A DNA stretch of 64,000 nucleotides from Fidelibacterota bacterium (GTDB lineage: Bacteria; Fidelibacterota; Marinisomatia; Marinisomatales; TCS55). The notes beneath the pieces were generated by a model. That model saw only the letters and a program-made list of their open reading frames with translations. It had not been told where the DNA came from and did not search any database. Location: NCBI GenBank assembly GCA_965249165.1, contig OZ252221.1:945347-1009346 (forward strand), read 5' to 3'. The position numbers and the translations under genes were made by a program. How positions within the stretch are numbered: the stretch's first letter is position 1; each line of letters opens with the position of its first letter. This document shows positions 5,911 to 48,743 of the stretch, piece by piece.

Positions 5911-6805
5911 GGTTAAGCTGACGTTCTTGAGTTAACAGCACAATGGCAGCCAGGAGTATGACCGCTCCTGCAGTCTGTGCCGGAGACATTATCCGTCCAC
6001 GAATGAACCAATCAAAACAAATAGCCGATAAAGGCCAAAAAAGTTCATAAATAGTCGTGTGTGATGCTGGCAAGTTGTTTAGACCGTAATAGTATATGAA
6101 AAGCGCTACCGCTCCGGTTGATATAACAATTGTGCCCAGGGTGATCCATTGTGCGACTTGTAAGACTCCGATCGAAGACACATCTTGAATTCCAATTAAT
6201 ACTATACCCGTTAACAAAGCAGTCAGTGATAAACGAAGAGCAGTTACAGTTTGAAACGGCAATTTATTTAACACGTGTTTGCCCAGCACAGTCGAACTGC
6301 CCCAGCTGAATGCGGCCAGTAAAGCAAACAACGCTGCAATGGTAGTTTTATCATCCCATGTTGACATGGGTTTTATACCAAATGTAACCAGATAACCGCC
6401 GATCATGGCCAGCCCGGCCAGCACTAAGAAACGACGGTTTAGTTTTTCTCTCAATAGAACCGCAGCTAGAATTATAGCAAAGATAGGCTGAAATTTTTGT
6501 AGTAATACAACCACAGATAGATCAATATAATCAACATAAGCTAAGGCATTTGTATAGAAGAATGTCCCAAGCATTCCCCCACAGATACTGATCCACAGGA
6601 CAGATCCCCACCCGCGCTGGTTAAGTGTTTTGATGTCGGCCCAGCCGCGCACAAGAAAAGGCAGAAAAAGCAGAGCACCCAATCCATGTTCTAGCGCAAC
6701 GATTACGAAAGCGGATACATTAAATAGCTGCTGGCGCAGTATGCCATCTAGACTCCAAAGAATTGCTGCCAGAATCACAGCAAAGGGCGGAAGGTATCTT
6801 TTCAC
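5903..6805 (-). CDS. EamA/DMT-family transporter
   Basis: 300 aa, 10 predicted TM helices arranged as two 5-TM halves. N-terminus ...ILWSLDGILRQ... is typical of the EamA domain. Overlaps the downstream MFS gene by 8 nt. Confidence 0.7.
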   Translation of the reverse strand: MKRYLPPFAVILAAILWSLDGILRQQLFNVSAFVIVALEHGLGALLFLPFLVRGWADIKTLNQRGWGSVLWISICGGMLGTFFYTNALAYVDYIDLSVVVLLQKFQPIFAIILAAVLLREKLNRRFLVLAGLAMIGGYLVTFGIKPMSTWDDKTTIAALFALLAAFSWGSSTVLGKHVLNKLPFQTVTALRLSLTALLTGIVLIGIQDVSSIGVLQVAQWITLGTIVISTGAVALFIYYYGLNNLPASHTTIYELFWPLSAICFDWFIRGRIMSPAQTAGAVILLAAIVLLTQERQLNHE

Positions 6806-6853
6806 TGGTGGAAAATTAATGCAGTGGAAGTGCTTTTTATAATAGATAAACTG

Positions 6854-7411
6854 TTAGGCGGAGCCGCCTCGACCGGAAAATCCAGAGATATCCAAGCCGA
6901 AGGATTTTGTGGCTATATCCCACATGAATTTTTCCTCTGTGTTAAACACAAAATCAGCATTTGTATCCTGTAGAAGCCAATCGCCATTCTCAATCTCTGC
7001 TTCCAGTTGGTGGGTGCCCCACCCAGCATGGCCCAGCAACAGTTTGTATTTTTTGGGTCCTTTACCATCTGTAATTTCGCGGATAACCATTTTGTTGCTG
7101 GTGAGTGAAAAATCTTGACCGATACTAACCGTACTTTCTGATTTATAGTCCGCCGAGTGCAGTACAATGCCCCGCGTTACCAAAACCGGGCCGCCGAAAT
7201 ATATAGTTGGCACCAGTTTTAATATATCATTATCCTCTGGAAAAAAACCATTGAATAATTCTTGGATTTCCGGGGTTTCAAATGGTTTGTTGATCACAAA
7301 TCCTAGGGCGCCATCTGCATTGTGTTCACAAATAAATACAACCGAACGGCCAAAATATGGATCCTGCATATGCGGCATGGCGATGATGATCTGGTTTTTT
7401 AATGATCCCAT
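6854..7411 (-). CDS. YqgE/AlgH family protein (UPF0301)
   Basis: 185 aa; LKNQIIIAMPHMQDPYFGRSVVFICEHNADGALGFVINKP matches the conserved YqgE/AlgH N-terminal block. Confidence 0.85.
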   Translation of the reverse strand: MGSLKNQIIIAMPHMQDPYFGRSVVFICEHNADGALGFVINKPFETPEIQELFNGFFPEDNDILKLVPTIYFGGPVLVTRGIVLHSADYKSESTVSIGQDFSLTSNKMVIREITDGKGPKKYKLLLGHAGWGTHQLEAEIENGDWLLQDTNADFVFNTEEKFMWDIATKSFGLDISGFSGRGGSA

Positions 7412-33313: not shown

Positions 33314-33463
33314 TCTACTATGGGGTTTATGTTATTCGATGGTATTGTAAACCCTATTGCTTGCGCACATCATAAGCTGCGCTTGGTTTTTTACTCAATG
33401 GTGTTGTCCTCGATGGTATAGGCATCTCCACTCGTGCATTATTTCCTTAAATTTAACAAAATA

Positions 33464-33492
33464 TTGACGCCCTTTTCCAAAAGGGTTAAACT
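33464..33492 (+). promoter_or_regulatory. Sigma-70-like promoter (TTGACG-17-TAAACT) with an internal palindrome CCCTTTTCCAAAAGGG; duplicated in the right repeat arm
   Basis: -35 at 33464-33469 and -10 at 33487-33492. The spacer carries a perfect 7-2-7 palindrome. The mirror copy at 48559-48587 (minus strand) reads TTGACA-17-TAAACT with a 6-2-6 version of the palindrome. Confidence 0.4.
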
Positions 33493-33574
33493 ATTTCTTG
33501 CCTGTAAATTAGAGAATCTACTAACTGCTTTATCCTATATTATCTTATTTCACTTATTTCACCGAGTCGTATTG

Positions 33575-34117
33575 ATGAAATACAATCACGGAGTTCGAAT
33601 GAAATTTCTTAATGTTGTAGTTTTTCTGTTCTTGTTTAATCAGGTACTTCTGGCTGAAGAAAGCCAACTTCTGGCGGACTCTACTGCTGTCATTTCCAAC
33701 GATTCTTTAGGTGTAACCCGGTATTTAATCCAATTTCCAGAACCGGATTTTGAGGTTGTGCACTTAATCGATTCGATGATTGTTTCCATACCACTCACCG
33801 ATGGGGAGGGTGTTTTGGATGGACAGGAGCTGGATATTAATGCTATGTTGACGGAATGGGTGGGTTTGGTGGTGAGTTGGACTACACCCTGGGAAACGCC
33901 GGGGGGTGATGTAGATGATTTTTATATTACGGGCCGGGTGGATACGTCCACCAGTTGGTTGAGTGTGGATATTTCTCCGCTCTACGTTGCATTATATCAG
34001 GGGTATATTTACGATTATGGTTTTATGGTGAAGCTGGCGGATGAGATGGCCGGGCCACTCTACCTGCCGAATATCAATCAGTCTTTTATTACGGTTTATA
34101 GCAGTGATTTGGAGTAA
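33575..34117 (+). CDS. Small secreted protein of unknown function, first gene of the Rhs operon
   Basis: ATG at 33575 (MKYNHGVRMKFLNVVVFLFLFNQVLLAEES is a signal peptide). The same start region is conserved in the duplicate at 48498. The stop lies 3 nt before the Rhs ATG, and a GGAG inside its last codons serves the Rhs gene. The ORF-track start at 33434 is probably too far upstream. Confidence 0.7.
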   Translation: MKYNHGVRMKFLNVVVFLFLFNQVLLAEESQLLADSTAVISNDSLGVTRYLIQFPEPDFEVVHLIDSMIVSIPLTDGEGVLDGQELDINAMLTEWVGLVVSWTTPWETPGGDVDDFYITGRVDTSTSWLSVDISPLYVALYQGYIYDYGFMVKLADEMAGPLYLPNINQSFITVYSSDLE

Positions 34118-34120
34118 AAA

Positions 34121-37100
34121 ATGAGAATAATCAGTAAAACATTCACGAATTTTATAACCTGTTTTCTATTATCTGCAATGGTGCTCAATGGACAGGATGA
34201 CGACTTCGTGGCACCATTGAAGCTACCGGAATCATCCAGTAGAGATGACGACGGTTCATCGCCTAGTGCCGCACCGAACATAAAGACCTTTGCATTAGAC
34301 CCGAATTTAAAGGGGGCGGTGGGAAACAGCGTGAACCTTTTTAGTGGGGACGTAAATCTGCCGGTGAATCTTGTGTCTTTGCCGGGACTCAATGGATTGG
34401 GGGTGAATGTTACTGCTGTTTATAACAGTAATATTCAAAATCAAGTGGATACGTGGAATCTGACAGCCCCCACTGGTGTACTGGGCTTGGGTTGGAGTTT
34501 GGATTACCCGAAGATTGTGCGGAATCATAAAAATACGGGTACCCGCCATGATGATGAGTTTTATCTGCTGGCCGGTGGTTCGTCAACGCCATTGCTCAGA
34601 ACCGGCACATCTACTAATGGACAGACCTATTATTACCGGGTGAAGAACGACCCCAATCTTGAGATCCGCTACTATCAAGAAGACGCAGATGACACGAATG
34701 GAGACATGGGCTATTGGGAGGTGCTCACCGGCAATGGGATCACGCAGGTGTTTGGTAATACAGATGACTCCAAGCAATTGGGGATTCGCTGGAAGAACTG
34801 GATCGGCAGTAGTATTATTGCCACTAATCAGACCCAATTTGCAATCGTTTGGAATTTGTCCAGTATGCGGGACGATTGGGGAAACGCAATAAATTATGAT
34901 TACGAAAACGTAACCAATACAATAGGTGCCGGAGCAAACGCCAAGGAGTATACGGAGGCATCCTATCTGGGAGAGATACGGGACGTTTATAATCGCAAGG
35001 TGGTATTTAATTATGGGGAAAAATCAGCGGACGAAGAATATCAAGACCCCCATAAGGAGCAGGGCGAACCGGACGCCTACCAAGAACGGTATGAGACCCG
35101 GTATTTACACAATATCGAGGTATACTCTGATGCGAATGTCTCCGATGAACTCTTTTCCATTCATTTTAATTATAATTTTGTCGGCGCTGGTAATCTTCGG
35201 AAACGATTACTGGCGGCCATTTGGCAAACGAATGCCCGGATGGAGTCCCTTCCGCCTCTGAAGTTCACATATTATGCGACGGGTTATCACCGGGGCATGT
35301 TGAAAACAGTGACCTATACCCAGGGTGGTATTACTACCTATACTTATACATCCCAGGATATTTCTTCCGTTGGTGTGAGTGCTGATCGTGATCGTCATGT
35401 TTCCCGTCCCACAGGATATGTTGGGAAACCGGGGATTTTTGTGGGGCATGACTACGTGGTGCTCATTTGGGAGAACGCCAGCGGCACAATTAACCTGGAA
35501 ACGTATATATGGACCGGTCGTTGGGTGAAGACCTTGGATGAAACACTTGATATTGATGATGATTCTGATGCTACTGAATATGAGGTCTTTATCGGGGAGG
35601 ACTATTTTGCTTTGATAGAGAAATTTCATACAACTCAGGGAATAAAGCCAATCCACATATACCACAAAAAGGAGGGGTTAAAAGGGTGGTATTATTATAC
35701 CCACGATTTAATATCCAACCACAGTGGCTGTGCAGATGGTGGCGGAAACAATGAAAATAGAATGAACGTTGCTGTGGGTGATGATTTTATATCGGTTGTA
35801 TCGATAGAACACGGGCGGGAATATAGATTTCAATGGAATGCTCAAGGAGAAACTTGGAATTCTTATGTGAGTGATTGCCGCAACGGCGATGATACGGATG
35901 ATTTTTATGTAGCTGGAACGGGTAATTATTATTTTTTTCATAACGCAATTGGGTATGACAGAATATACTTTAGAAATCGGAATGAGTTGGGTAATTGGAC
36001 AAACAGCTCTTTTTATTTAGGAAGTAATACCTCTGATAACGGCGATTATTATCAGTCTTGGCATTCTGGATCCAGTTTTTTCGTTGGCTTAATTAGAGGG
36101 CATGCTGAAGTGGCCTATACCTGGGACGTGAATTTTCAGGGTTTTCAGCGACATAATTTAGGTTTCCAGGTTAATGACGTTTCACCCACCTTTATCAGAG
36201 GCTCTTTTGTTGGAATCTATGATTCTGGTCCGAATTCGTCTCAATTTATTCGATTTAACGGTTCTTATTGGTTAAATGAAACATTTCCTGGTTATGGCTT
36301 CACAATTGGTGAAGATTTTATGTTGACATCTGGAATCGGTGGAATCATTCGGCTGCTATACAATCCAAACCTGAATGATTATGAAGAGTTTGCAGCTGAT
36401 AATGGTGAATATTATGCATACCTTACTGGCCTAGCAGATCAACCTAAGGTTTCAAATAACTTTGTAGTTGCTTATCATTGTTGTGATGGTGACAATTCTG
36501 CTGGTATTTATGTTCTGTATCGATTTCCAGGTGATTTTGAGTTTAGTGAAATAGCAAATTTTCCGCAAACGTATTCTTCACCAAGAGTTGCCACCGGCTC
36601 CAACTATTTTATCATACAAAATGATGATTCGTATACTTCTCAATTTCATTTTGTTAAAAACGGTGCGCATGTTGCATCGGATGCAGGCTCCGATAACGGG
36701 AAATTTATACATTACTTTGATGAGTATGACTTTCCTGATCCTGTAGGAGCGAATACGGCGGTTGCTATTCGTTCAGGTAACGATGCTACTTTGTATAGAA
36801 TAGTCAATGACGACTTTCAAGGAGCGATCGGAGACGTAGTGGTCAGTACGATGGCCATGGACGATGGCTATAATTCAGTTTCAACCAGTTATGAGTTTCA
36901 ATATGGTGTATCGGATCCATCGGGGACAGTGGCCCAATACAACAAAGTCATCGTCTATCCCGGTGGTGATACACTGAACGGGTTTACGGAACATTATTTT
37001 TTCAATGGCCTGGAGACCGATGAAAGTGCAGCACCATTCCCCGCGGGTAGCAATGTTACCAATGCCGACTCCTATTATGGTTTAATGACTGGGCGACCGT

Positions 37101-40100
37101 ATAAAATAATCGCTAAAGATGCTAATGGCGAGGTGGTGTCCACCACCGAGAACTACTGGTTTGTCACCGAATTTGATATAGGCCCCCGTAAAATAGGTCA
37201 TTATACCCGCCAACGAAAACAAGTCAGTACCACCGATGGAATCACCAAGACGGTTGAAAGTACCTACGCTGAAAACAGTGGGTATTTAACCAGAACACAA
37301 ACGACCAATAGCAATGGCGATATTTTAACCAAGTCCTTTACGCATTTTAAGAATGCCTATGGGGATATTGACAATCTCAAGTCTCCGATAGTCAAAACGA
37401 TTACAAGAAACACCCGGAGCGGAACTGCAACCACCACATCCGCCACGGCCACCACCTGGAAGGAATGGTCACCAGGGAAATGGGCCCCCAATAAGACTTA
37501 TACCTGGAATGGGAATGGGAGTGTTATATTTAATTTTAGTGCCTGGAGCGGGAATGTTGAGCCACCATCAAGATGGCTTAAGGTGTCACAGGTATTGGAG
37601 CGCACGTCCTTTGGAGCAGTGCGAAGATCAGCAGATGTAGATAGTACTATTTCGTCCGTTATATTTGATCAGACCCATAAACGCCCTGTGGCTGTATTCA
37701 GTGCGGCGAATATTTCCGATAATTCCATTGGGAACGAGGCCGGGTACATTGGATTTGAAAGCGGGTATAGTACCAACAGTCATCCGGATAATGATTACTG
37801 GTCTATGCCTCCAGCCAATACATTTTCAACAGATGCCCATAGCGGGAAGTACAGCCGCAAGGTTATAGCCGGTACCCCCCGTTATGGACCCACCCGAGAT
37901 TTTCGACCGGATGACCAGTATGGAACCTATGTATTGTCTTGTTGGGTGAAAACAGAGGCGGGCTACAATTCATCGACAAACAGTAGCTTTAAACTCCATA
38001 CCAAACGAGATAGTGGGAATAACTCTCTCTATCCGAGTATAGCGGCGGCTTGGATTTCTATTCCGATTGATGACACCGATGGAAAATGGGAATACCTTGA
38101 AGTGGCGCTTGATCTGGGACGGGTTCGGGAATTGGGTGATATTCCCGCCAGTGAACTATTACGATTGCGGACGTTTACGGCCAATCAAGACCCCGATCAT
38201 TACTTTCTAGTGGATGACATCACCTTCCGGCCCCTTGATTCCGGTTTTTCTGCTACGATCATTGATCCTGAAACGCGTCGGGTCACAGCCCGGCTGGGGA
38301 ATAACGGCGAGACCATGCGCACGGTCTATGACGACTTTAACCGTCCGCTTGCCAGTATTGGTCCAGATGAACAGGTGAATGCCCTCACCATGCCCTACTA
38401 TTCCAGATATTACAATTGGGGTGTCCTTTCGGGCAGTTGGACTGAATATGATCCTGATGATCCAAACAGTGTATTATCGATCACGGCACAAAACGGCGGC
38501 ATTTATGATGGGTTTGATGATGGGGATGCAGATGGTTGGACCCTTGCACCTACAAGTCATTGGCAGGTGGAAGATGGAAAATTGAAAATAAATGCACATA
38601 GTGGTGACGAGACAGCGACGGCAGTGCTTGAGAGTTCCGGAGCGGAGGCTATGGCTGTATCCATCAGTGCAGCAGCCGAATTTAATGATTCATTGGGAGT
38701 TGTGGGCATGGCGGTGGGAGATTATTCTATTCGTTGTAACCTTATCGGTCCGGACTTTGCACGCTGGAGATTGTATCATGATGGTAACGCATTGGTCTCG
38801 GGTACCGGTCATGCATACGGTAGAAAGTGGACATTCATTATATCCCAGGGGATGATCCACTTTTTTGTGGATAGGGAGTTGAGATTAGAGTATGAGGATG
38901 CGAATGCTGTGGGCGGAGAGGTGGTCTTGTTTGCAGAACCATGGTACGGAGAAATGGCCGAATTTGACAATGTTTTGGTGATCCACGATCCGGTGGTGAG
39001 TCGGGTTTATTCTGATGGGATGGGCAAAACGATTCAATCGCAACGCTTGGATGGGGATGATATTATTTTATCCATGCCCTATTATGATGAAATGAACCGG
39101 GCAGCGGTGGGTTTTAAACCCATCAAGTTGGATAATCACGCCCTGGAATATAACTCGGACCTGGTGACCGCTTTTGATTGGGCTGCGGGGACATATACGG
39201 GTACGATGAATAATTTTCATCTGGCCGACAGTGGCTTTAACTATACGCGCTGGGAGTATGAAACCACGCCCTTAGCGCGGGTGGTAAAAGAGAGCCTTCC
39301 TGGAAGCGGCTTTCAAATCGGCAGCGGGAAAGAGATCAGCTATGAGTATTTGCCTGATCCGGGCGAGACATTTACGGGCATTAACTTCGACCCGGAAGAA
39401 CACACTATCCGCAAAATTGAAGATCCGGAGGGGGTTAAATCGGTGGTTGTAGAAGATAAACTGAACAAAACGCTGCTGAAGCAATTGGAAGATGAAGATA
39501 CACCGACAACCTATAGTTACAACGTTAAGGGACAAGTGGATACGATCTATCTACCGAATTATTTTGATTCGACTGTCCCCAGTAACGAGGAGTTTACAAT
39601 TGAGATGACCTACGATCATTTTGGGCGGCTGAAGAGCAAAGCCACCCCGGATGGTGGTACGGAGCGGTTTATCTATCACAACCGGAATGGGCAGTTGCGC
39701 TTTATGCAGGATGGTGTTGGCGATAATTTTAATAAGGTAAATTATTATAAATATGACCGGATCGGGCGCATCAAAGAAGCAGGACATTTTGCCTATAGCG
39801 GAAGTTTGAACAACCTCCAGGATGAAGCGAACACGATCCCGGATTACCCGACCAATGCCCCCACCTGGCGGAAGAAGTATTATTACGATCGGGCGGGTGA
39901 GACCGGATCCACCATCAATTATAAGGGTCGACTGTGGCGGATAGAAACGAATAATGATAATAGTAGTGATGTGGAGGTGGTAGAGACGTTCCGGTATAAT
40001 CGTGGGGGTGAGATTGTGGAAAAGGAGTTGCTGGTGAGCGATTATGACAGTACCCAGCACTATAGCACTAGCTACGAATACAATAATGTGGGCAATGTGA

Positions 40101-42220
40101 TTCAAATCGATTACCCGGATGATGAAACGATGGTCGCCTATACCTATAATCAGTTGGGTCAGCTAATATCTGTGGGGAATGATTCAGACTCCTACCGCTA
40201 CGCCATCTATATTTATAACCCGGATGGCAGCATTAATCGGGAAATCCTGTACCAAAGCGTAGGTTCATTGAGTCACAATTTTAGATATAACTCCCAGGGG
40301 CGCTTAGACGGAATCGGTCCCCAGGGTGGCTTTGGCTTCCATGAATCAATCGATTATTCCTATTCTGGAAATATAACTACCACCGGCATGGCCCTGGCGC
40401 AACAGGGTCCTGATACATTGGAAGGTGTGATTTATAATTACCGAACCAACTATACTTACGATGATCTGGGTCAACTGACCGGGGCAGTACACAATGATAA
40501 TGCCTTAACAGATTTGACGATGACCTACGATCCCAATGGGAATATTCTTACCCAGAACAATAGAACGTATAATTATATAAGCGGGACGAATAAAGTAAGG
40601 AACACCGATGGCAGCGGCAACGATTACACCTACAATGCCAATGGGAATATAACCAGGGCGAATCCAAAAAATATCCAACAGATCAGATACGATGCTTTTA
40701 CGCAAATGACCCGAAGGATTTTGACTAGTCGGAATATAACGTTCCAGTATGATGGCAGTAACCGCAGAGTATTTAGGAACCACCGTGTAAGAGTATATCC
40801 TCCGGGGGGAGGAGACAATCCGGTCATGAAGCAGAAATACCAAAAGGGACCATCGGAAGAAGCGGTGATCAAAGATCAGTATTCCGGTTTTTCTCCCGCT
40901 CAAGTGGAGTCAAAGATGATGGGCGCAATCACATGGATATACAATAATAAGCTCTATCTCCATGGTGAGAATGCGTATCCGTTGGTGGAGTACATCACCA
41001 GCACCAACGAATCGGAGACGAAGCAAGTGTATATCTACGGAGCCACGGGGTTGATCGCCACCCACCGAGACAGTACCACTTATACCATTATCAAAGACCA
41101 TCTGGGCAGTACCCGGCTGGTGCTGGACGAGGATTGGGCGGTGGTGAGCTGGTATGACTACGCGCCTTTTGGCAAGATCAGCCGCGGCGGAACCGGGACA
41201 AAGTTAAACTACCGCTACACCGGACAGGAAAGGGATGGTGCCACGGGGTTAATGAACTACCGCGCCCGAATGTACGACCCGGATTTAGGAAGATTTTATG
41301 CGGTGGATCCGGCAGGGCAGTTGGCCAGCCCTTACGCTTACGCCGGAAATAATCCCCTTATTATGGTGGACCCGGATGGGGAGTGGTTTTTTCTAATTCC
41401 CATGCTTTTTGGGGGCGCGGTGAATTATGCGATGTCAGATAATCCAACCTGGAAAGATTTTGCCATTGGTGCTGCACAAGGACTTCTAACTTATTATTCA
41501 GGTGGTGGTGGATTTGGGTTTTCAATGAATTCAGCAGCACAAGCAGGTTTAGACAAGTTTGCCATGAACACATTTGCGAGTATGGTTTGGGATGTGGGAT
41601 ATCGTAAATCTGGACTATCTGAACAGGTACAAAAAGAATTCGGCATGGGTTTTGACATTGCTTTTAACTTACTTGGCCCGGCAGCCATTGAAGGTGGATT
41701 GGCTAGTGCCGTTGGCCCTGCTGAAGGTGTAACATATGACGAAAGTATGACCTTAGAAGAAGTTCACGAAAAAGGGATGGTAAATTACCCTACAAAGAAA
41801 GCAGATATAGATTTAATGGAAGAAGGTGCGCATTTTGATGACACTGGTGCGGATTGGAAAAGAGGATACACAGTTTCTCATGGTGGTAAAACAGCATTTG
41901 TAAAAGAAAAGCCGGCTTATTTAAAGAAAAAAATTCTGGGTACTCATTATGGAACTTCAATAGGACCCAATACTGAAGATTTTACAAATGATCCTTTTTT
42001 TATTGGTTTGATTACAGGTGATGGTTATTTATCAGGTGGGATTAGTCATCAATCGAATACAAGAGCTTTGAACGCATTATTTGGCACATCCTTTTTACCG
42101 AGTCAAGTATTGGGTCAGAACTTTAACATTGGTTTTTATCAGTCTTTTATGGGGGCTGGGCATATGCCCTGGTCATTACAGCTGCATATGACTGGGAATT
42201 ATGTTAGGGCTTATGAATAG
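34121..42220 (+). CDS. Giant SpvB-N-terminal / Rhs (YD-repeat) polymorphic toxin, 2,699 aa, with C-terminal toxin tip
   Basis: - Signal-like N-terminus.
- SpvB-type block NLFSGDVNLPVNLVSLPGLNGLGVNVTAVYNS.
- Two jelly-roll-like inserts (about 37740-38240 and 38490-38990).
- Many YD repeats (YTYNQLGQL, YTYDDLGQL, MTYDPNGNI, YTYNANGNI...).
- Rhs core end: DHLGSTRLVLDE...YDYAPFGK...YRYTGQERDGATGLMNYRARMYDPDLGRFYAVDP...NNPLIMVDPDGEW (DPxGE at about 41370-41384).
- A 278-aa tip follows the core. Confidence 0.93.
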   Translation: MRIISKTFTNFITCFLLSAMVLNGQDDDFVAPLKLPESSSRDDDGSSPSAAPNIKTFALDPNLKGAVGNSVNLFSGDVNLPVNLVSLPGLNGLGVNVTAVYNSNIQNQVDTWNLTAPTGVLGLGWSLDYPKIVRNHKNTGTRHDDEFYLLAGGSSTPLLRTGTSTNGQTYYYRVKNDPNLEIRYYQEDADDTNGDMGYWEVLTGNGITQVFGNTDDSKQLGIRWKNWIGSSIIATNQTQFAIVWNLSSMRDDWGNAINYDYENVTNTIGAGANAKEYTEASYLGEIRDVYNRKVVFNYGEKSADEEYQDPHKEQGEPDAYQERYETRYLHNIEVYSDANVSDELFSIHFNYNFVGAGNLRKRLLAAIWQTNARMESLPPLKFTYYATGYHRGMLKTVTYTQGGITTYTYTSQDISSVGVSADRDRHVSRPTGYVGKPGIFVGHDYVVLIWENASGTINLETYIWTGRWVKTLDETLDIDDDSDATEYEVFIGEDYFALIEKFHTTQGIKPIHIYHKKEGLKGWYYYTHDLISNHSGCADGGGNNENRMNVAVGDDFISVVSIEHGREYRFQWNAQGETWNSYVSDCRNGDDTDDFYVAGTGNYYFFHNAIGYDRIYFRNRNELGNWTNSSFYLGSNTSDNGDYYQSWHSGSSFFVGLIRGHAEVAYTWDVNFQGFQRHNLGFQVNDVSPTFIRGSFVGIYDSGPNSSQFIRFNGSYWLNETFPGYGFTIGEDFMLTSGIGGIIRLLYNPNLNDYEEFAADNGEYYAYLTGLADQPKVSNNFVVAYHCCDGDNSAGIYVLYRFPGDFEFSEIANFPQTYSSPRVATGSNYFIIQNDDSYTSQFHFVKNGAHVASDAGSDNGKFIHYFDEYDFPDPVGANTAVAIRSGNDATLYRIVNDDFQGAIGDVVVSTMAMDDGYNSVSTSYEFQYGVSDPSGTVAQYNKVIVYPGGDTLNGFTEHYFFNGLETDESAAPFPAGSNVTNADSYYGLMTGRPYKIIAKDANGEVVSTTENYWFVTEFDIGPRKIGHYTRQRKQVSTTDGITKTVESTYAENSGYLTRTQTTNSNGDILTKSFTHFKNAYGDIDNLKSPIVKTITRNTRSGTATTTSATATTWKEWSPGKWAPNKTYTWNGNGSVIFNFSAWSGNVEPPSRWLKVSQVLERTSFGAVRRSADVDSTISSVIFDQTHKRPVAVFSAANISDNSIGNEAGYIGFESGYSTNSHPDNDYWSMPPANTFSTDAHSGKYSRKVIAGTPRYGPTRDFRPDDQYGTYVLSCWVKTEAGYNSSTNSSFKLHTKRDSGNNSLYPSIAAAWISIPIDDTDGKWEYLEVALDLGRVRELGDIPASELLRLRTFTANQDPDHYFLVDDITFRPLDSGFSATIIDPETRRVTARLGNNGETMRTVYDDFNRPLASIGPDEQVNALTMPYYSRYYNWGVLSGSWTEYDPDDPNSVLSITAQNGGIYDGFDDGDADGWTLAPTSHWQVEDGKLKINAHSGDETATAVLESSGAEAMAVSISAAAEFNDSLGVVGMAVGDYSIRCNLIGPDFARWRLYHDGNALVSGTGHAYGRKWTFIISQGMIHFFVDRELRLEYEDANAVGGEVVLFAEPWYGEMAEFDNVLVIHDPVVSRVYSDGMGKTIQSQRLDGDDIILSMPYYDEMNRAAVGFKPIKLDNHALEYNSDLVTAFDWAAGTYTGTMNNFHLADSGFNYTRWEYETTPLARVVKESLPGSGFQIGSGKEISYEYLPDPGETFTGINFDPEEHTIRKIEDPEGVKSVVVEDKLNKTLLKQLEDEDTPTTYSYNVKGQVDTIYLPNYFDSTVPSNEEFTIEMTYDHFGRLKSKATPDGGTERFIYHNRNGQLRFMQDGVGDNFNKVNYYKYDRIGRIKEAGHFAYSGSLNNLQDEANTIPDYPTNAPTWRKKYYYDRAGETGSTINYKGRLWRIETNNDNSSDVEVVETFRYNRGGEIVEKELLVSDYDSTQHYSTSYEYNNVGNVIQIDYPDDETMVAYTYNQLGQLISVGNDSDSYRYAIYIYNPDGSINREILYQSVGSLSHNFRYNSQGRLDGIGPQGGFGFHESIDYSYSGNITTTGMALAQQGPDTLEGVIYNYRTNYTYDDLGQLTGAVHNDNALTDLTMTYDPNGNILTQNNRTYNYISGTNKVRNTDGSGNDYTYNANGNITRANPKNIQQIRYDAFTQMTRRILTSRNITFQYDGSNRRVFRNHRVRVYPPGGGDNPVMKQKYQKGPSEEAVIKDQYSGFSPAQVESKMMGAITWIYNNKLYLHGENAYPLVEYITSTNESETKQVYIYGATGLIATHRDSTTYTIIKDHLGSTRLVLDEDWAVVSWYDYAPFGKISRGGTGTKLNYRYTGQERDGATGLMNYRARMYDPDLGRFYAVDPAGQLASPYAYAGNNPLIMVDPDGEWFFLIPMLFGGAVNYAMSDNPTWKDFAIGAAQGLLTYYSGGGGFGFSMNSAAQAGLDKFAMNTFASMVWDVGYRKSGLSEQVQKEFGMGFDIAFNLLGPAAIEGGLASAVGPAEGVTYDESMTLEEVHEKGMVNYPTKKADIDLMEEGAHFDDTGADWKRGYTVSHGGKTAFVKEKPAYLKKKILGTHYGTSIGPNTEDFTNDPFFIGLITGDGYLSGGISHQSNTRALNALFGTSFLPSQVLGQNFNIGFYQSFMGAGHMPWSLQLHMTGNYVRAYE

Positions 42221-42245
42221 TGATACAACTCATTGTTGACTGCTT

Positions 42246-42674
42246 ATGAAAAGGAAAATCTTATTGGGTATTGTTATGATTGAAATATGTGGCATTCTTG
42301 GATGTTTTTATGTTTATCCATTTTATGTAAGAAAGGAAATAAAAGGTGATTATATTTATGGAGTCTATGGAGATCAAAATGAAAGTGATTCATTACGTCA
42401 TAGTTTCATTTTTGCAGAATCAAAAGAATCATTCCAATGGACAAGACATAAATATGAGCCAATGAGGCCAGATGAACACTACATTTTTATAGGTGATTCA
42501 ATTAAAGTACTATCGAGTATACCTGTTAAACTGAGAATAAAAAGGGTAAAAATTGACGGAACTACTTATACCAGATATAGATATCCAAATAAATTTTCAA
42601 TGGATGGACCAGTGGATATATATGTGAGAAATAAGATCATAAAATTTATGCACGTAGAGAGATTCAATGAATAA
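42246..42674 (+). CDS. Putative cognate immunity lipoprotein 1 (family paralogue, leader type A)
   Basis: Lies immediately downstream of the Rhs stop. N-terminal hydrophobic leader ending ILGC (lipobox-like). Conserved core HYIFIGDS..VL...PVK..I..VKIDGTTYTRYRYP....DGP.DIYVRN..IKFM shared by six paralogues. Confidence 0.65.
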   Translation: MKRKILLGIVMIEICGILGCFYVYPFYVRKEIKGDYIYGVYGDQNESDSLRHSFIFAESKESFQWTRHKYEPMRPDEHYIFIGDSIKVLSSIPVKLRIKRVKIDGTTYTRYRYPNKFSMDGPVDIYVRNKIIKFMHVERFNE

Positions 42675-42740
42675 CTCTGTTGGATTTGCTCCGGTTTAGT
42701 TGCCATCTTAATTTTTTTGACTAGTAAATTTGACAAAAAA

Positions 42741-43036
42741 ATAGTCGGCACTCATTACGGGGTGTCGATAGGACCCAATACTGAAGATTTTACAAATGAT
42801 CCTCTTCTTAAGGGTTTGTTTACCGGTAATGGTTATTTATCAGGTGGAATTAGTCATCAATCGAATACAAGAGCTTTGAACGCATTATTTGGCACATCCT
42901 TTTTACCGAGTCAAGTATTGGGTCAAAACTGCTCATGGCTTTTATCAATCTTTTTTTGGAGCTGGGCATATGCCCTGGTCATTACAGCTGCATATGTATG
43001 GGAATTATGCTAGGGCTTATGAGTAATACAACTAAT
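42741..43036 (+). pseudogene. Orphan toxin-tip copy 1, 5'-truncated and frameshifted
   Basis: Homology to the main tip starts at ...KKIVGTHYGVSIGPNTEDFTNDP. The frame is lost after ...SQVLGQN (indel relative to the other copies), but the original stop context GCTTATGAGTAA is retained at 43025-43036. Confidence 0.75.
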
Positions 43037-43048
43037 TGAGGACTTCTT

Positions 43049-43495
43049 ATGAGAATGCAAATTTTATTTCTTACTGGTATGATTGGAACCTGTGTCTTTT
43101 TTGGATGTTTTCCTCCATTTTTTAGAATGTATGAAATAAAAGATGATTATGTTCATATAACACAATATATAGATAAAAGTGATTCAGTAAATCACTACTA
43201 CTATTACTATTTTGCGGAGTCAGAAAAAACACTCCAAGATGAAGGATATAGAAAGTACATGGAGCCAAATAGTTATACTATTTTTATAGGTGATTCAGTA
43301 GAAGTACTCTTGAGCTTACCTTTTAAACCAAAAATAAGAACGGTAAAAATTGACGGTACTACTTATACTAGACATCGATGTCCGAAAAAAATTTTTACCG
43401 GAATGGATGGACCATTAGATATATATGTAAGAAACAATACCATAAAATTTATGCGAATAAAGTTATTTGCAGAAGGGATGGGACCACAACGGTAA
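43049..43495 (+). CDS. Putative immunity lipoprotein 2 (leader type B)
   Basis: Leader MRMQILFLTGMIGTCVFFGC. Same conserved core as the other paralogues. The C-terminus ...KLFAEGMGPQR overlaps the next toxin-tip ORF. Confidence 0.6.
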   Translation: MRMQILFLTGMIGTCVFFGCFPPFFRMYEIKDDYVHITQYIDKSDSVNHYYYYYFAESEKTLQDEGYRKYMEPNSYTIFIGDSVEVLLSLPFKPKIRTVKIDGTTYTRHRCPKKIFTGMDGPLDIYVRNNTIKFMRIKLFAEGMGPQR

Positions 43496-43952
43496 AACAT
43501 TAGATCAAATTCACAAAGAAGGAATGAAAGGTTACAATGAAAAATATGTAGAATACATGGTAGAAGGTTTTCACTTTAATCAAACTGGTGCGGATTGGAA
43601 GAGAGGATACACAGTTTCTCATGATGGTAAAACAGCTTATGTAAAAGAAAAGACAGCTTATAGAGGTCTAGGGACTCATTATGGAACTTCAACATTACCA
43701 AATACTAAAGATTTTACAAATGATCCTTTTCTTAAGGGTTTGTTTACCGGTGATGGTTATTTATCACGCGGCATTAGTCATCAATCGAATACAAGAGCAT
43801 TAAACGCATTATTTGGCACATCCTTTTTACCGAGTCAAGTATTGGGGCAAAACTTTAACATTGGTTTTTATCAGTCATTTATGGGAGCTGGGCATATGCC
43901 CTGGTCTCTACAGCTGCATATGTATGGGAATTATCATAGGGCTTATGAGTGA
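43467..43952 (+). CDS. Orphan toxin-tip copy 2 (intact 161-codon ORF, no Rhs core or secretion part)
   Basis: Aligns with main tip residues ...TLEEVHEKGM... to the C-terminal ...NY.RAYE. The ORF-track start is a TTG, and it is uncertain whether the copy is translated independently. Confidence 0.55.
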   Translation: MQKGWDHNGKTLDQIHKEGMKGYNEKYVEYMVEGFHFNQTGADWKRGYTVSHDGKTAYVKEKTAYRGLGTHYGTSTLPNTKDFTNDPFLKGLFTGDGYLSRGISHQSNTRALNALFGTSFLPSQVLGQNFNIGFYQSFMGAGHMPWSLQLHMYGNYHRAYE

Positions 43953-43974
43953 TACAACTAATTGAGGACTACTT

Positions 43975-44430
43975 ATGAAAAAGCGAATCTTATTGGGTAT
44001 TGTTATGATTGAAATATGTGGTATTCTGGGGTGTTTTTATCCATTTTATAAAACATATGAAATAAAAGATGATTATGTTCATATAATAAGATATGAAGAT
44101 CAAAGTGATTCAGTAGATCACTACTACTATTACTATTTTGCGGAATCAGAAAAACCACTCCAGAATCCAATAGATAGAAACAACCTAATGAAGCCAAATA
44201 GATATACCATTTTTATAGGTGATTCAGTAGAAGTACTCTTGAGCTTACCTTTTAAACCAAAAATAAGAACGGTAAAAATTGACGGCACTGCTTATACTAG
44301 ATATAGATATTCAGATGATTTTCATGGACGAGTGGATGTTAATGGACGATTGGATGTTTATATGAGAAATAATACTATTAAATTTATGCGAATAAAGTTA
44401 TTTGCAGAAGGGATGGGACCACAACGGTAA
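43975..44430 (+). CDS. Putative immunity lipoprotein 3 (leader type A)
   Basis: Leader MKKRILLGIVMIEICGILGC. The N-terminal half differs from paralogues 1, 2 and 4, while the C-terminal part is near-identical to paralogue 2. Confidence 0.6.
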   Translation: MKKRILLGIVMIEICGILGCFYPFYKTYEIKDDYVHIIRYEDQSDSVDHYYYYYFAESEKPLQNPIDRNNLMKPNRYTIFIGDSVEVLLSLPFKPKIRTVKIDGTAYTRYRYSDDFHGRVDVNGRLDVYMRNNTIKFMRIKLFAEGMGPQR

Positions 44431-44887
44431 AACATTAGATCAAATTCACAAAGAAGGAATGAAAGGTTACAATGAAAAATATGTAGAATACATGGTAGAA
44501 GGTTTTCACTTTAATCAAACTGGTGCGGATTGGAAGAGAGGATACACAGTTTCTCATGATGGTAAAACAGCTTATGTAAAAGAAAAGACAGCTTATAGAG
44601 GTCTAGGGACTCATTATGGAACTTCAACATTACCAAATACTAAAGATTTTACAAATGATCCTTTTCTTAAGGGTTTGTTCACCGGTGATGGTTATTTATC
44701 ACGCGGCATTAGTCATCAATCGAATACAAGAGCTTTGAACGCATTATTTGGCACATCCTTTTTACCGAGTCAAGTATTGGGCCAAAACTTTAACATTGGT
44801 TTTTATCAGTCTTTTATGGGGGCTGGGCATATGCCCTGGTCATTACAGCTGCATATGTATGGGAATTATCATAGGGCTTATGAGTGA
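44402..44887 (+). CDS. Orphan toxin-tip copy 3 (protein identical to copy 2)
   Basis: 161-aa translation identical to 43467-43952. I counted 8 nucleotide differences between the two copies, and all are synonymous. Confidence 0.55.
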   Translation: MQKGWDHNGKTLDQIHKEGMKGYNEKYVEYMVEGFHFNQTGADWKRGYTVSHDGKTAYVKEKTAYRGLGTHYGTSTLPNTKDFTNDPFLKGLFTGDGYLSRGISHQSNTRALNALFGTSFLPSQVLGQNFNIGFYQSFMGAGHMPWSLQLHMYGNYHRAYE

Positions 44888-44909
44888 TACAACTAATTGT
44901 TGACTGCTT

Positions 44910-45359
44910 ATGAGAAGCCAAATCTTATTTCTTACTGCAATGATCGCAACCTGTGTTATTTGTGGGTGTATTTACCCGTTTTCTGTAAGAAAAGAAATAA
45001 AAGATGATTTTGTTTATGTAGCACGCTATGATAAAGATCAAAATATAAGTGACTCATTATATAACTATCACGAATATTATTTTGCAGAATCAAAAAAAGC
45101 ACTTCAGGGTTCAAGAATTGGATATAGATATGACCCAATGGAGCCCAATAGACACTACATTTTTATAGGTGATTCAGTAGAAATACTCTTAAGGATACCT
45201 ATTAAACCGATAATAAAAACAGTAAAAATTCTCGGCATTACTTATACTAGATATCGATATTTATTAATTGATCCTATTGATGGACCATTAGATATATATG
45301 TGAGAAATAAGATCATAAAATTTATGCGAGTAAAGTTATTTGCAGAAGGGAGGATATAA
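44910..45359 (+). CDS. Putative immunity lipoprotein 4 (leader type B)
   Basis: Leader MRSQILFLTAMIATCVICGC; conserved family core; ends ...KLFAEGRI. Confidence 0.6.
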   Translation: MRSQILFLTAMIATCVICGCIYPFSVRKEIKDDFVYVARYDKDQNISDSLYNYHEYYFAESKKALQGSRIGYRYDPMEPNRHYIFIGDSVEILLRIPIKPIIKTVKILGITYTRYRYLLIDPIDGPLDIYVRNKIIKFMRVKLFAEGRI

Positions 45360-45436
45360 CATATGACGAAAGTATGACCTTAGAAGAAGTTCACGAAAAA
45401 GGGATGGTAAATTACATTTAAAGTGAAGCATATAAA

Positions 45437-45832
45437 ATGGAAGAAGGTGCGCACTTTGATCGAACTGATGTCGATTGGAAGAGAGGATACACAGTTTCTC
45501 ATGATGGTAAAACAGCATTTATAAAAGAAAAGACGGCTTATAGAGGTCTAGGTACTCATTATGGAGCGTCGATAGGACCCAATACTGAAAATTTTAAAAA
45601 TGATCATCTTCTTAAGGGTTTGTTTACAGGTGATGGTTATTTATCACGTGGGATTAGTCATCAATCGAATACAAGAGCTTTGAACGCATTATTTGGCACA
45701 TCCTTTTTACCGAGTCAAGTATTGGGCCAAAACTTTAACATTGGGTTTTATCAGTCTTTTATGGGGGCTGGGCATATGCCCTGGTCACTACAGCTTCATA
45801 TGTATGGGAATTATCATAGGGCTTATGAGTGA
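45437..45832 (+). CDS. Orphan toxin-tip copy 4 (131-codon ORF from an internal ATG; upstream homologous part interrupted by a stop)
   Basis: Homology to the main tip begins at about 45353 (TYDESMTLEEVHEKGMVNY). An in-frame TAA sits at 45419-45421. The ORF resumes at MEEGAHFD... and runs to the conserved ...NYHRAYE. Confidence 0.5.
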   Translation: MEEGAHFDRTDVDWKRGYTVSHDGKTAFIKEKTAYRGLGTHYGASIGPNTENFKNDHLLKGLFTGDGYLSRGISHQSNTRALNALFGTSFLPSQVLGQNFNIGFYQSFMGAGHMPWSLQLHMYGNYHRAYE

Positions 45833-45854
45833 TACAACTCATTGAGGACTACTT

Positions 45855-46301
45855 ATGAAAAAGCGAATCTTATTGGTTATTGTTATGATTGAAATGTGTG
45901 GCATTCTTGGATGTTTTTATGTTTATCCATTTTATGTAAGAAAGGAAATAAAAGGTGACTATATTTGTAAAGCATATTATAATGTACCACATTATACAGA
46001 TAAAATTGAAAGTAACTTAGATATTCAATATTTCTATTTTGCAGAATCAAAAGAATTATTACAGAATGCAGAATATAAATATGAGCCAATGAACCCAAAT
46101 AACCACTACATTTTTATAGGTGATTCAGTAGAAGTACTCTCGATTATACCGGTTAAACCGAAAATAAAAAGGGTAAAAATTGACGGGACTACTTATAATA
46201 GATATAGATATCCATATGAATTTGCAATGGAAGGACCAGTGGATATATATGTGAGAAATAAGATCATAAAATTTATGCACGTAGAGATATTTACAGAATA
46301 A
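45855..46301 (+). CDS. Putative immunity lipoprotein 5 (leader type A, closest to paralogue 1)
   Basis: Leader MKKRILLVIVMIEMCGILGC. The C-terminus ...IKFMHVEIFTE and the downstream sequence (CTCTGTTGGACTTGCTCCGGTTTAGTTG...) mirror those of paralogue 1. Confidence 0.6.
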   Translation: MKKRILLVIVMIEMCGILGCFYVYPFYVRKEIKGDYICKAYYNVPHYTDKIESNLDIQYFYFAESKELLQNAEYKYEPMNPNNHYIFIGDSVEVLSIIPVKPKIKRVKIDGTTYNRYRYPYEFAMEGPVDIYVRNKIIKFMHVEIFTE

Positions 46302-46408: not shown

Positions 46409-46885
46409 ATGGTTACAATGGGAAGGCAAATCTTATTCCTTATTGTTATGATTGCAATGTGTGTTATTGTTGGATGTATTCCTCAATATTATGTTTGGAT
46501 ACCCCAAGAAATAAAAGATGATTATGTTTATATAATACCTTATACAGAGCAAGATGAAGATCAAACTAAAAGTGACTCATCATTTCAATTTTTCTATTTT
46601 GCAGAATCAAAAGAATCAATACCATCGGAAATTAAATCACAATATGGAATATTGAGCTATGACCCAATGGATCCGAATAGCCACTATATTTTTATAGGTG
46701 ATTCATTCGAAGTACTCTCAAATATGCCTGTTAAACCGGAAATACAAACGGTAACAATTGATGGAACTACTTATACTGTATATCGATATTCAAGTGAATT
46801 TACTGGTAAAATGGATGGACCATTGAATATATATGTGAGAAATAATACCATAGAATTTATGCGCATAATGTTATTTGTAAGATAA
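46409..46885 (+). CDS. Putative immunity lipoprotein 6 (most divergent paralogue; no toxin tip upstream)
   Basis: Leader ...GRQILFLIVMIAMCVIVGC. Conserved core HYIFIGDSFEVLSNMPVKPEIQTVTIDGTTYTVYRY...DGPLNIYVRNNTIEFMRI. Confidence 0.6.
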   Translation: MVTMGRQILFLIVMIAMCVIVGCIPQYYVWIPQEIKDDYVYIIPYTEQDEDQTKSDSSFQFFYFAESKESIPSEIKSQYGILSYDPMDPNSHYIFIGDSFEVLSNMPVKPEIQTVTIDGTTYTVYRYSSEFTGKMDGPLNIYVRNNTIEFMRIMLFVR

Positions 46886-48031
46886 CTCTGTTGATATTTG
46901 CGGGTATACATTATCATTTTATTACGATCAATATGACTTACAACATTTGGATCAACTGGTGTCTGTGGGGAATGATTCAGACTCCTACCGCTACGCCATC
47001 TATATTTATAACCCGGATGGCAGCATCAATCGGGAAATCCTTTACCAAAGCGTAGGTTCATTGAGTCACAATTTTACCTATAACTCCCAGGGGCGCTTAA
47101 AGTTAATCAATCATTCCGATATTAGTTTTGGGATCCGGGAGAGCATTACCTATACATCCGGGGGCAATATCGACTCCACCGTGATAACTCTTGGTCGGAA
47201 TGGCGGCGGTGGCGGTGGCGGAAATGATGATAGTTCGGAGGACAATACTATCCCCGAACTATATTTTTATGATTATACCACTAACTATACTTACGATGAT
47301 CTGGGTCAGTTGACCGGGGCAGTACACAATGATAATGCCCTAGCAGATTTGACGATGACCTACGACCCCAATGGGAATATTCTCACCCAGAACAATAGAA
47401 CGTATAATTATATAAGCGGGACGAATAAAGTAAAGAACACCGATGGCAGCGGCAACGACTACACCTACAATGCCAATGGGAATATAACCAGGGCGAATCC
47501 AAAAAATATCCAACAGATCAGATACGATGCTTTTACGCAAATGACCCGAAGGATTTTGACTAGTCGGAATATAACGTTCCAGTATGATGGCAGTAACCGC
47601 AGAGTATTTAGGAACCACCGTGTAAGAGTATATCCTCCGGGGGGAGGAGACAATCCGGTCATGAAGCAGAAATACCAAAAAGGACCATCGGAAGAAGCGG
47701 TGATCAAAGATCAGTATTCCGGTTTTTCTCCCGCTCAAGTGGAGTCAAAGATGATGGGCGCAATCACATGGATATACAATAATAAGCTCTACCTCCATGG
47801 TGAGAATGAGTATCCGTTAGTGGAGTACATCACCAGCACCAACGAATCGGAGACGAAGCAAGTGTATATCTACGGAGCCACGGGGTTGATCGCCACCCAC
47901 CGAGACAGTACCACTTATACCATCATCAAAGACCATCTGGGCAGTACCCGGCTGGTGCTGGACGAGGATTGGGCGGTGGTGAGCTGGTATGACTATGCGC
48001 CTTTTGGCAAGATCAGCCGCAGCGGAACCGT
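46881..48031 (+). pseudogene. Orphan Rhs core fragment (duplicate of main-gene residues about 2005-2363) lacking N-terminus, core end and toxin tip
   Basis: Near-identical to 40150-41190 except for a replaced patch (about 47095-47280, including a GGC/GGT-encoded Gly run). Homology stops at ...PFGKISR(S/G)GT at about 48031. The ORF then reads through antisense sequence of the small-protein gene to a stop at 48143. Confidence 0.85.
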
Positions 48032-48036
48032 GGAAT

Positions 48037-48498
48037 TTACGCGATATTACGTTGGTACGTCCAAGCAAATACGTAAAGCATACGGAGAAGCGGAGAAATA
48101 TCCACACTCAGCCAACTGGCTGACGTATCCACCGTGCCAGTAATATAAAAATCATCTACATCACCCCCCGGCATTTCCCAGGGCGCAGTCCAACTTACCA
48201 CCGAACCAACCCATTCCGTCAGCATAGCATTAATATCCAGCTCTTGTCCATCCAAAACACCACCTCCATCGGTGAGTGGTATCGAGACAATCATCGAATC
48301 GATTAAGTGTACAATCTCAAAATCCGGTTCCGGAAATTGGATTAAATACCGGGTTACACCCAAAGAATCGTTGGAAATAACAGTGGAGGACTCAGCAAGG
48401 AGCTGGCTTTCTTCAGCCATAAGCGCCTGACTAAACAACAACAGAAAAACTACAACATGAAGACACTTCATTTTAATTCCATGATTGTGTTTCATCAA
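48037..48498 (-). pseudogene. 3'-truncated duplicate of the small secreted-protein gene (right repeat arm)
   Basis: The first roughly 135 codons parallel 33575-33981 (MMKHNHGIKMKCLHVVVFLLLFSQALMAEESQLL...SVDISPL). The tail LRMLYVFAWTYQRNIA is unrelated and overlaps the orphan rhs fragment. Confidence 0.75.
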
Positions 48499-48743
48499 TA
48501 CGACTCGAGAAAATATGCTAAAGAAGTTAGTAGATTCTCTAATTTACAGGCAAGAGATAGTTTAACCCTTTTGGAAAAGGATGTCAATATTTTGTTAAAT
48601 TTAAGGAAATAATGCACGAGTGGAGATGCCACGATTATACCATCGAATAACAGAAACCGCATAGTAGATCAAACTCTTGTCATGTAACGTTCCGCCAACG
48701 CTTTATCCACCACCGCTGGTTCATGATCTTGCAATATCTTATC
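48089..48743 (-). repeat. Right arm of the large inverted repeat (partner 33243-33981)
   Basis: See the left arm. The inner boundary is at the shared ...GAGTGTGGATATTTCTCCGCT. The outer boundary lies inside the 3' end of the monooxygenase gene. Confidence 0.9.

Follow-up and report, generated by a model that had tools for sequence, protein, structure and literature searches.

Silent-only divergence and gene conversion in a tandem array of core-less Rhs toxin tips from a Fidelibacterota genome

Here we describe an array of truncated, or orphan, Rhs toxin tips in a 64,000-nt stretch of DNA (the window) from a Fidelibacterota bacterium (assembly GCA_965249165.1, contig OZ252221.1, positions 945,347 to 1,009,346 of the forward strand). 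The window sits in a 2.14-Mb single-contig genome that harbors 13 tip copies of one family at three Rhs loci (A, B and C), locus A being the one in the window. Judged from its sequence, the region is the 3'-terminal part of an Rhs polymorphic-toxin locus. A full-length Rhs gene (34121..42220; ORF, or open reading frame, of 2699 aa), whose toxin tip occupies 41717-42217, is followed by the orphan tips c1-c4, each with an immunity-like ORF downstream, and tip and immunity-like gene together form a tandem array with a period of ~935 nt. Unless stated otherwise, positions are those of the window and features lie on the + strand. Two of the orphans, c2 and c3, encode one protein and differ from each other at silent sites only, a pattern that is beyond the chance of recent duplication. 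The explanation that we favor, with a probability of about 0.6, is that the tip/immunity array evolves concertedly and represents a silent arsenal, the purifying selection on the tip core being exerted via exchange with Rhs-linked copies.

Silent differences and selection on the tip core

As proposed in the initial annotation, the orphan tips c2 (43467-43952; 161 codons from TTG, with no Rhs core) and c3 (44402-44887) are 486 nt each and, on direct comparison, specify identical 161-aa proteins. They differ at exactly eight sites, all of them synonymous (43745, 43799, 43802, 43847, 43877, 43886, 43907 and 43908). The codon pairs of c2 and c3 are TTT/TTC, GCA/GCT, TTA/TTG, GGG/GGC, TCA/TCT, GGA/GGG, TCT/TCA and CTA/TTA, so that seven of the eight differences occupy the third codon position and the eighth is the silent first-position change CTA/TTA. 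Non-synonymous differences between the two copies, which would contradict the silent-only pattern, were absent on direct comparison (8/8 synonymous). For the neutral expectation, all single-base changes of the tip sequence were enumerated. The synonymous share among them ranges from 20% (kappa 1) to 30% (kappa 8), and the probability that eight out of eight changes are synonymous under neutral mutation ranges from 3e-6 (kappa 1) to 8e-5 (kappa 8).

It could be argued that no selection is involved, the silent pattern having arisen by chance after a very recent duplication or as an assembly or polishing artefact. The identical 5' 300 nt of the two units and the near-identity of loci A and B imply that recent duplication or homogenisation is part of the story. 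However, this view is hardly credible given a probability of at most 8e-5 for the observed pattern. Moreover, the differences are at silent codon positions, whereas sequencing errors ignore codon position, and the neighboring immunity genes have a ratio of non-synonymous to synonymous substitution (dN/dS) of ~1 at similar dS.

The differences between c2 and c3 are skewed along the tip: the first 278 nt have none, the remaining 208 nt all eight (Fisher p = 0.001). All of them fall within 164 nt after a 300-nt run of identity. This perfect-identity segment (43445..43744, equal to 44380-44679), which includes the immunity 3' end and the 5' part of the tip, is recently homogenised or duplicated. 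Units U1 and U2 are 100% identical across alignment columns 781-983. Within the window, seven of the eight sites are c2-side changes (five private to c2, one common to c1 and c2, one common to c2 and c4) and the remaining one is private to c3. The claim that variants are shared patchily among the copies holds for whole units, as seen in identity windows, a permutation test and a four-gamete test described below, but only weakly for these eight sites.

A 50-aa conserved block (GISHQSNT...LQLHM), encoded at 42038..42187 in the main tip and carrying the motifs HQ, LP[ST]QV and F[YW]QS[FL][YM]G[AS]G, has the same protein sequence in c2 (43770-43919), c3 (44705-44854) and c4 (45650-45799), as was noted initially. 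Genome-wide the block is not fully invariant, since the displaced copy of locus B (B_o0) carries an L->F change and a copy of locus C an R->K change. The block also contains an ORF in another frame (43813-43965, with its repeats), which was considered and rejected because its protein is not conserved between copies.

Selection was quantified as dN/dS by the Nei-Gojobori method, separately for the last 59 codons of the tip (C part) and for the 34 codons before them. Among c2, c3 and c4, dN in the C part is 0 at a dS of 0.06-0.27. Between orphan and Rhs-linked tips, the dN/dS of the same 59 codons is 0.07-0.32, the overall dS of the C part being 0.06-0.35. The preceding 34 codons reach a dN/dS of 0.2-1.6, a middle zone 0.3-0.7, and the immunity genes ~0.5-1.5 at a dS of 0.2-0.7. 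Between c2 and c4, replacement changes affect 9 of 78 N-part sites but none of the 141 sites of the C part (p = 7e-5), and silent changes are spread evenly along the tip. The invariant block coincides with motifs of two distant relatives of the family (described below), which points to a conserved, presumably catalytic, core. As judged from these sequence comparisons, the case for purifying selection on the C-terminal core of the tip is solid.

In the immunity paralogues, dN/dS is ~1 in the mature N-terminal half, the frames are intact and the motifs FAES, IFIGDS, YRY and DIYVRN are kept. For these genes diversifying selection is suggested rather than decay.

Gene conversion within the array and between sister loci

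Locus B lies 514 kb from locus A, and the Rhs bodies of both loci are 99.8% identical (window 33492-40306), with short divergent patches at 40300-40457, 41258-41307 and 41708-41857. From 42137 to 46197, locus A and its counterpart in locus B (C1:1501282-1505342) are identical over 4,061 nt save five synonymous sites in c2. The left end of this identity (42137) falls within the conserved block of the tip, and its right end lies inside the immunity-like gene imm4 (45855..46301), at 46197/46198. The five sites (43799, 43802, 43847, 43877 and 43886) are five of the eight that distinguish c2 from c3. They span 88 nt (43799..43886), with none in the other ~3,970 nt, and the chance of such clustering is P = 5e-7. 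At all five sites the c2 of locus B shows the c3 state, and c2 and c3 of locus B thus differ at three sites. The simplest reading of this tract is a short gene conversion of the c2 of locus B by the neighboring c3. Alternatively, the c2 of locus A was converted by a donor outside this genome. A whole-genome search for the five private variants of c2 in the window found no donor of this c2 version, the best match being 95.9% over 121 nt. One conversion event and zero point substitutions separate the two 4-kb arrays, and conversion is therefore faster than point mutation here.

Further evidence for exchange comes from a GENECONV-style permutation of polymorphic sites in seven aligned units (21 pairs), in which 10 of the 21 unit pairs reached p <= 0.004 with tract positions that vary between pairs. 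The four-gamete test yielded a minimum number of recombination events (Rm) of 5 in 279 nt, and sliding-window identity across units shows a mosaic. Gene conversion among array members, which had been proposed from the patchy variants, is supported by the 5-site tract, the permutation test and the four-gamete test alike.

Locus B holds one extra unit (imm00 + o0). Its tip, B_o0, is chimeric: the 5' junction is of the c1 type, and the 3' end matches the main tip of locus A exactly. Such a chimeric extra unit is expected from unequal crossover. The main tips of loci A and B are identical over the last 350 nt. Locus C, on the opposite strand, comprises a 742-aa Rhs fragment with a tip of the same family and a frameshifted orphan, and its Rhs-linked tip is a mosaic of main-like and c4-like or orphan-like states. 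The surroundings of locus C (C1:62000-93500, - strand) form a third, larger Rhs region, in which a full-length gene is split (357 + 2412 aa) and six or more further orphan tips, belonging to other toxin types, are accompanied by candidate immunity genes. Altogether, Rhs arrays take a large share of the 2.1-Mb genome.

The orphan tips c1-c4 start inside the toxin domain, at the junctions J1 and J2, and retain no core-encoding piece. The J1 junction, found in c1, is joined at a poly-A run (..SKFDKKIVGTHYG) and is common to c1, B_o0 and C_c1. At J2 the immunity 3' end is fused at ..KLFAEG, and this junction is common to c2, c3 and c4 and to a remnant that follows c4 in locus B. The genes imm1 (43049..43495; 148 aa, with the last codons ..KLFAEGMGPQR), imm2 (43975..44430; 151 aa) and imm3 (44910..45359; 149 aa) have neither stop codon nor spacer at their junctions, and their ORFs extend (..KLFAEG...) into toxin-derived ..GPAEGVTYDE.. 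sequence. These run-on regions (43445-43495, 44380-44430 and 45330-45359) include a 29-nt overlap with the frame of the next tip. Fusion of the immunity gene with the tip by programmed frameshifting was considered and rejected, as no slippery heptamer is present within the overlap.

Decay, expression and maintenance of orphan tips

Single orphan tips can decay. The orphan c1 (42717..43013) is dead, with a 2-nt deletion and replacement changes in the conserved block (QNCSW...). Orphans of the c1 type are frameshifted in all three loci and have one 2-nt deletion in common, C_c1 included. The differences between A_c1 and C_c1 are distributed over the ancestral codon positions as 7/5/12, which is near neutral. 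The dead C_c1 is identical to the intact copies across 49 nt downstream of its own frameshift. This identity is beyond the reach of protein-level selection on C_c1, and conversion alone can therefore keep the block 'conserved'. The intact c4 of locus A and the dead C_c1 hold equivalent positions in arrays that are 92.6% identical. In c4 (45350..45832), an in-frame TAA in the 5' part is followed by a 131-codon open frame from an ATG at 45437.

The initial annotation had noted that the orphans look selectively maintained. Purifying selection on the tip core stands. However, because conversion outpaces mutation, because frameshifted orphans occur in three loci and because of the identity seen in C_c1, selection cannot be assigned to the orphans as orphans. 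Silent-only divergence can be inherited from, or policed through, the Rhs-linked copies.

In the model that we favor, one toxin-tip family has been amplified, together with a lipoprotein-type immunity gene, into a tandem array whose evolution is concerted with that of two sister loci of this genome. Units are gained or lost through unequal crossing-over, and short gene-conversion tracts carry patches between tips, Rhs-linked ones among them; this exchange is demonstrated. Selection would filter the orphan sequence while it is on, or copied from, a secreted Rhs protein, and the differences between c2 and c3 would be silent only because the sequence was filtered beforehand on Rhs-linked copies. 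The orphans would then not work independently but serve as a silent store of variant cassettes and immunity genes, in which single members, such as c1, can die.

Several observations weigh against this model. Transfer from an orphan to a full-length expressed Rhs gene was not caught directly, the conversion that is seen being from orphan to orphan, in addition to the mosaic Rhs-linked tips. Moreover, c2-c4 share no Rhs core with the main gene, and a swap must use homology inside the toxin domain. This 5' homology to the main tip is short, amounting to 85 nt at 87% in c4 (its first 85 nt compared with main-gene 41723-41807) and ~70% in c2 and c3. In addition, for four of the five silent variants specific to c2 the genome contains no donor. 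They stem either from a c2 lineage under constraint, which would mean selection on the orphan, or from an unsampled strain.

A second explanation for the silent divergence is that the orphan tips are under direct selection because they are expressed themselves, through transcription of the array or internal promoters and from internal starts. In line with this, the frames of c2 and c3 are open from the junction (161 codons) and c4 has a frame that starts with ATG. On a three-copy tree, the substitutions in the C part that are private to c2, c3 or c4 comprise ~9 synonymous and 0 non-synonymous changes. Terminator-like sites between the units on the + strand are absent, save one inside imm3, and are not above chance; co-transcription of the array is probable, and it is probably transcribed by read-through from the Rhs gene. 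Expressed orphans also have precedents in Salmonella (PMC7043789) and S. alvi (PMC5727410).

However, the expression signals of the immunity genes are not matched at the tips. A GGAG or GAGGA motif is located upstream of the Rhs gene, imm1, imm2 and imm4 (GAGGA 9 nt before the ATG of imm2), whereas no comparable Shine-Dalgarno (SD)-like motif was found upstream of the TTG of c2 and c3 or the ATG of c4. Promoter-like sites number 19 in the region against 31.6 +/- 5.6 expected from shuffled sequence. The candidate sites at 43510-43538 and 44445-44473 were rejected, since such sites are rarer in the region than in shuffled sequence.

The immunity genes themselves also speak against working orphan tips. 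A hydrophobic N-terminal signal with an invariant G-C lipobox is predicted for each of the 11 immunity paralogues, and the proteins look like exported lipoproteins. If they are, the toxin probably acts outside the cytoplasm, and a leaderless tip fragment would be useless inside the cell, where it would meet neither its target nor the predicted lipoprotein immunity. Furthermore, imm3 is just 58% identical to imm2 though the tips upstream of these genes, c3 and c2, encode one protein, a combination that would be tolerable only if the tips are silent. Frameshifted orphans are, in addition, tolerated in three loci. Direct selection on expressed orphans is thus quite improbable. Two uses had been suggested for the orphans. 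Recombination into the main gene is favored by the mosaic Rhs-linked tips and the extra unit of locus B; expression in their own right is disfavored by the lack of SD-like motifs, promoter-like sites that are not above chance and the lipoprotein-type signals of the immunity proteins.

The orphans could also be young fossils, that is, Rhs-linked tips formerly active in this or another strain that were recently displaced, through C-terminal displacement or horizontal transfer, and have not yet decayed. In this case the silent changes predate the demotion and nothing maintains the copies now. The dead c1-type copies, the in-frame TAA of c4 and the L->F change in the block of B_o0 fit this explanation, as does the 3' end of a main-type tip in orphan position in locus B. 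The high similarity of the A and B arrays indicates that the present arrangement is very young, and displacement agrees with the model of Jackson et al. 2009, as it is cited in later work (PMC5727410, PMC5361080). On the other hand, the two shared junction types fit tandem duplication of truncated units better than repeated displacements, although conversion could spread junctions too. Active conversion among orphans is demonstrated, and the copies are not simply left alone. We therefore consider recent displacement alone unlikely, though it deserves to be kept in mind.

Locus context, relatives and known systems

The Rhs-associated core of the main gene stops at ...NPLIMVDPDGEW (~41380), and a Gly-rich hydrophobic stretch separates it from the toxin tip. 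TIGR03696 (Rhs_assc_core) matches residues 3-60 of 41201-42217 (E = 5.8e-20), which places the Rhs core just before the toxin. The immunity-like gene imm0 (42246..42674; 142 aa, lipoprotein-type signal ..ILGC) starts 25 nt past the Rhs stop codon. Downstream of imm4, imm5 (46409..46885) has no tip upstream, and its protein is identical to its locus C counterpart. The only orphan of the locus that retains Rhs core sequence is a fragment at 46947..48143, which matches parts of 40150-41198 at 92-98% identity and has no tip of the family attached. The putative toxin and immunity roles are assigned from position and family context.

The tail of the orphan core fragment (...GTVEFTRYYVGTSKQIRKAYGEAEK) also closes two ORFs of locus C (315 and 322 aa; C1:76464-78840, - strand), and a GTVEFTRYYVGTSKQIRKAYGEAEK tail common to the window and locus C suggests a further rearrangement junction that the two share. 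Inverted repeats of ~570 nt with 87% identity (33421-33994 versus 48074-48630) flank the entire Rhs locus. These repeats cover the start of a small secreted-protein gene upstream of the Rhs gene, and the ORF 48037-48498 (- strand) is a truncated inverted copy of that gene.

The toxin family is extremely rare. Searches of Pfam and NCBIfam with the tip and immunity proteins returned nothing beyond the Rhs core, and a PDB profile search with the tip gave no meaningful match. AlphaFold2 on a 6-sequence alignment reached a mean predicted local distance difference test score (pLDDT) of 40.9. In a HMMER scan of 1.84 billion representative proteins, four matches to the tip family were obtained. One of these, P0003 (the 742-aa protein of locus C), is from this genome, and P0004, which matches c1, is probably from it too, leaving P0005 and P0006, with 41-42% identity, as the only distant relatives. 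A search of 5.8 billion proteins with c2 and a search with the immunity profile each retrieved only proteins of this genome, a scan of 185,579 species genomes with the tip and immunity alignments gave no match, and neither did a JGI metagenome scan and 60 related genomes. P0006 (303 aa, 42% identity; JGI metagenome contig Ga0499492_0083, 3647-5640), the one distant relative of appreciable size, is itself core-less and has the Gly-rich hydrophobic stretch before the toxin. Downstream of it are two small ORFs with homology to the immunity family, and the gene lies among unannotated small genes, beside another orphan Rhs C-terminal tip (Rhs-CT; 6623-7369).

Orphan Rhs and CdiA tips with immunity genes that are re-recruited by recombination are established (PMC3150448, PMC3967940), and orphan Rhs tips are known to recombine into the main gene under selection (PMC3967940). 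Displacement of the C-terminal region as the origin of orphans goes back to Jackson et al. 2009, as cited in PMC5727410, and Rhs toxin domains were described to be under purifying selection with rapid recombination (PMC5727410). As in the known Rhs orphan-module loci (PMC3150448, PMC3967940), the locus described here combines a DPxGxW-type core end and a variable C-terminal putative toxin next to a small immunity-like gene with downstream truncated, unsecreted tips that have their own immunity-like genes, and with recombination between orphan and main tips. Unlike in those loci, c1-c4 keep no core, so that the homology for recombination lies within the toxin; the orphans belong to one toxin family instead of being unrelated toxins, and the array is a regular ~935-nt tandem repeat common to three loci. 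The locus thus belongs to the known Rhs orphan kind, and what is unusual are the core-less orphans, the single family across three loci and its extreme rarity.

Long arrays of orphan toxin domains with immunity genes are also present in Snodgrassella alvi (Steele et al., 2017; PMC5727410). There, however, many orphans are transcribed, they are toxic on expression and they represent many toxin types, whereas the present array consists of variants of one very rare family. The orphan immunity arrays of the Vibrio cholerae type VI secretion system (T6SS) resemble it in being mosaic by GENECONV-type tests (Kirchberger et al., 2017; PMC5361080). In V. cholerae, successive replacement leaves immunity arrays, sometimes with a displaced effector 3' end downstream (PMC5361080). 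Those arrays gather different immunity types via horizontal transfer, whereas paralogues of one family diversify and homogenise in place here. The orphan Rhs-CT of Salmonella, which resembles a type II toxin-antitoxin (TA) module (Starsta et al., 2020; PMC7043789) is likewise a tip without Rhs shell, the maintenance of which needs explaining. The work on that orphan demonstrated internal promoter(s), a CTG start preceded by a ribosome-binding site and an immunity protein located in the cytoplasm (PMC7043789), whereas no such expression signals were found in the present array and its immunity proteins look like exported lipoproteins. The same study posed the maintenance of orphans as a question, with the same two answers as the initial annotation (PMC7043789). 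The array also recalls a different class of system, in that its copies are truncated, have no evident expression signals and exchange short conversion tracts. These are features of silent-cassette gene conversion of the pilE/pilS type in Neisseria, in which truncated silent copies with variable and conserved segments donate short non-reciprocal tracts. Unlike in pilE/pilS, the variable cargo of the tips has to move together with an immunity gene or be covered by one.

It is tempting to speculate, although we regard it as rather doubtful, that the core-less tips constitute a dedicated cassette system for switching toxin specificity, in which variable N segments are donated to expressed Rhs genes by short conversion tracts. 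The invariant C-terminal core would then be both the catalytic module and the 3' homology arm, with the conserved DWKRGYTVSH stretch as the 5' arm. Co-transcription of the whole archive of lipoprotein immunity alleles would make any switch self-safe. If true, selection would act on the orphans as a reservoir, and a pilS-like mechanism would exist for interbacterial toxins.

Under the favored model of a concertedly evolving silent arsenal, the genome offers a clean within-genome snapshot of such an array, with two 4-kb arrays that are one tract apart and dead and intact orphans side by side, and with a tip core of dN/dS near 0 that adjoins immunity genes near 1. The persistence of orphan toxin modules has been explicitly named as an open question (PMC7043789). 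The array indicates that silent-only divergence of orphans can stem from concerted evolution with selected copies and is, alone, no proof of orphan use. Finally, the toxin/immunity pair represents an almost unique family, which would be new biochemistry if characterised.

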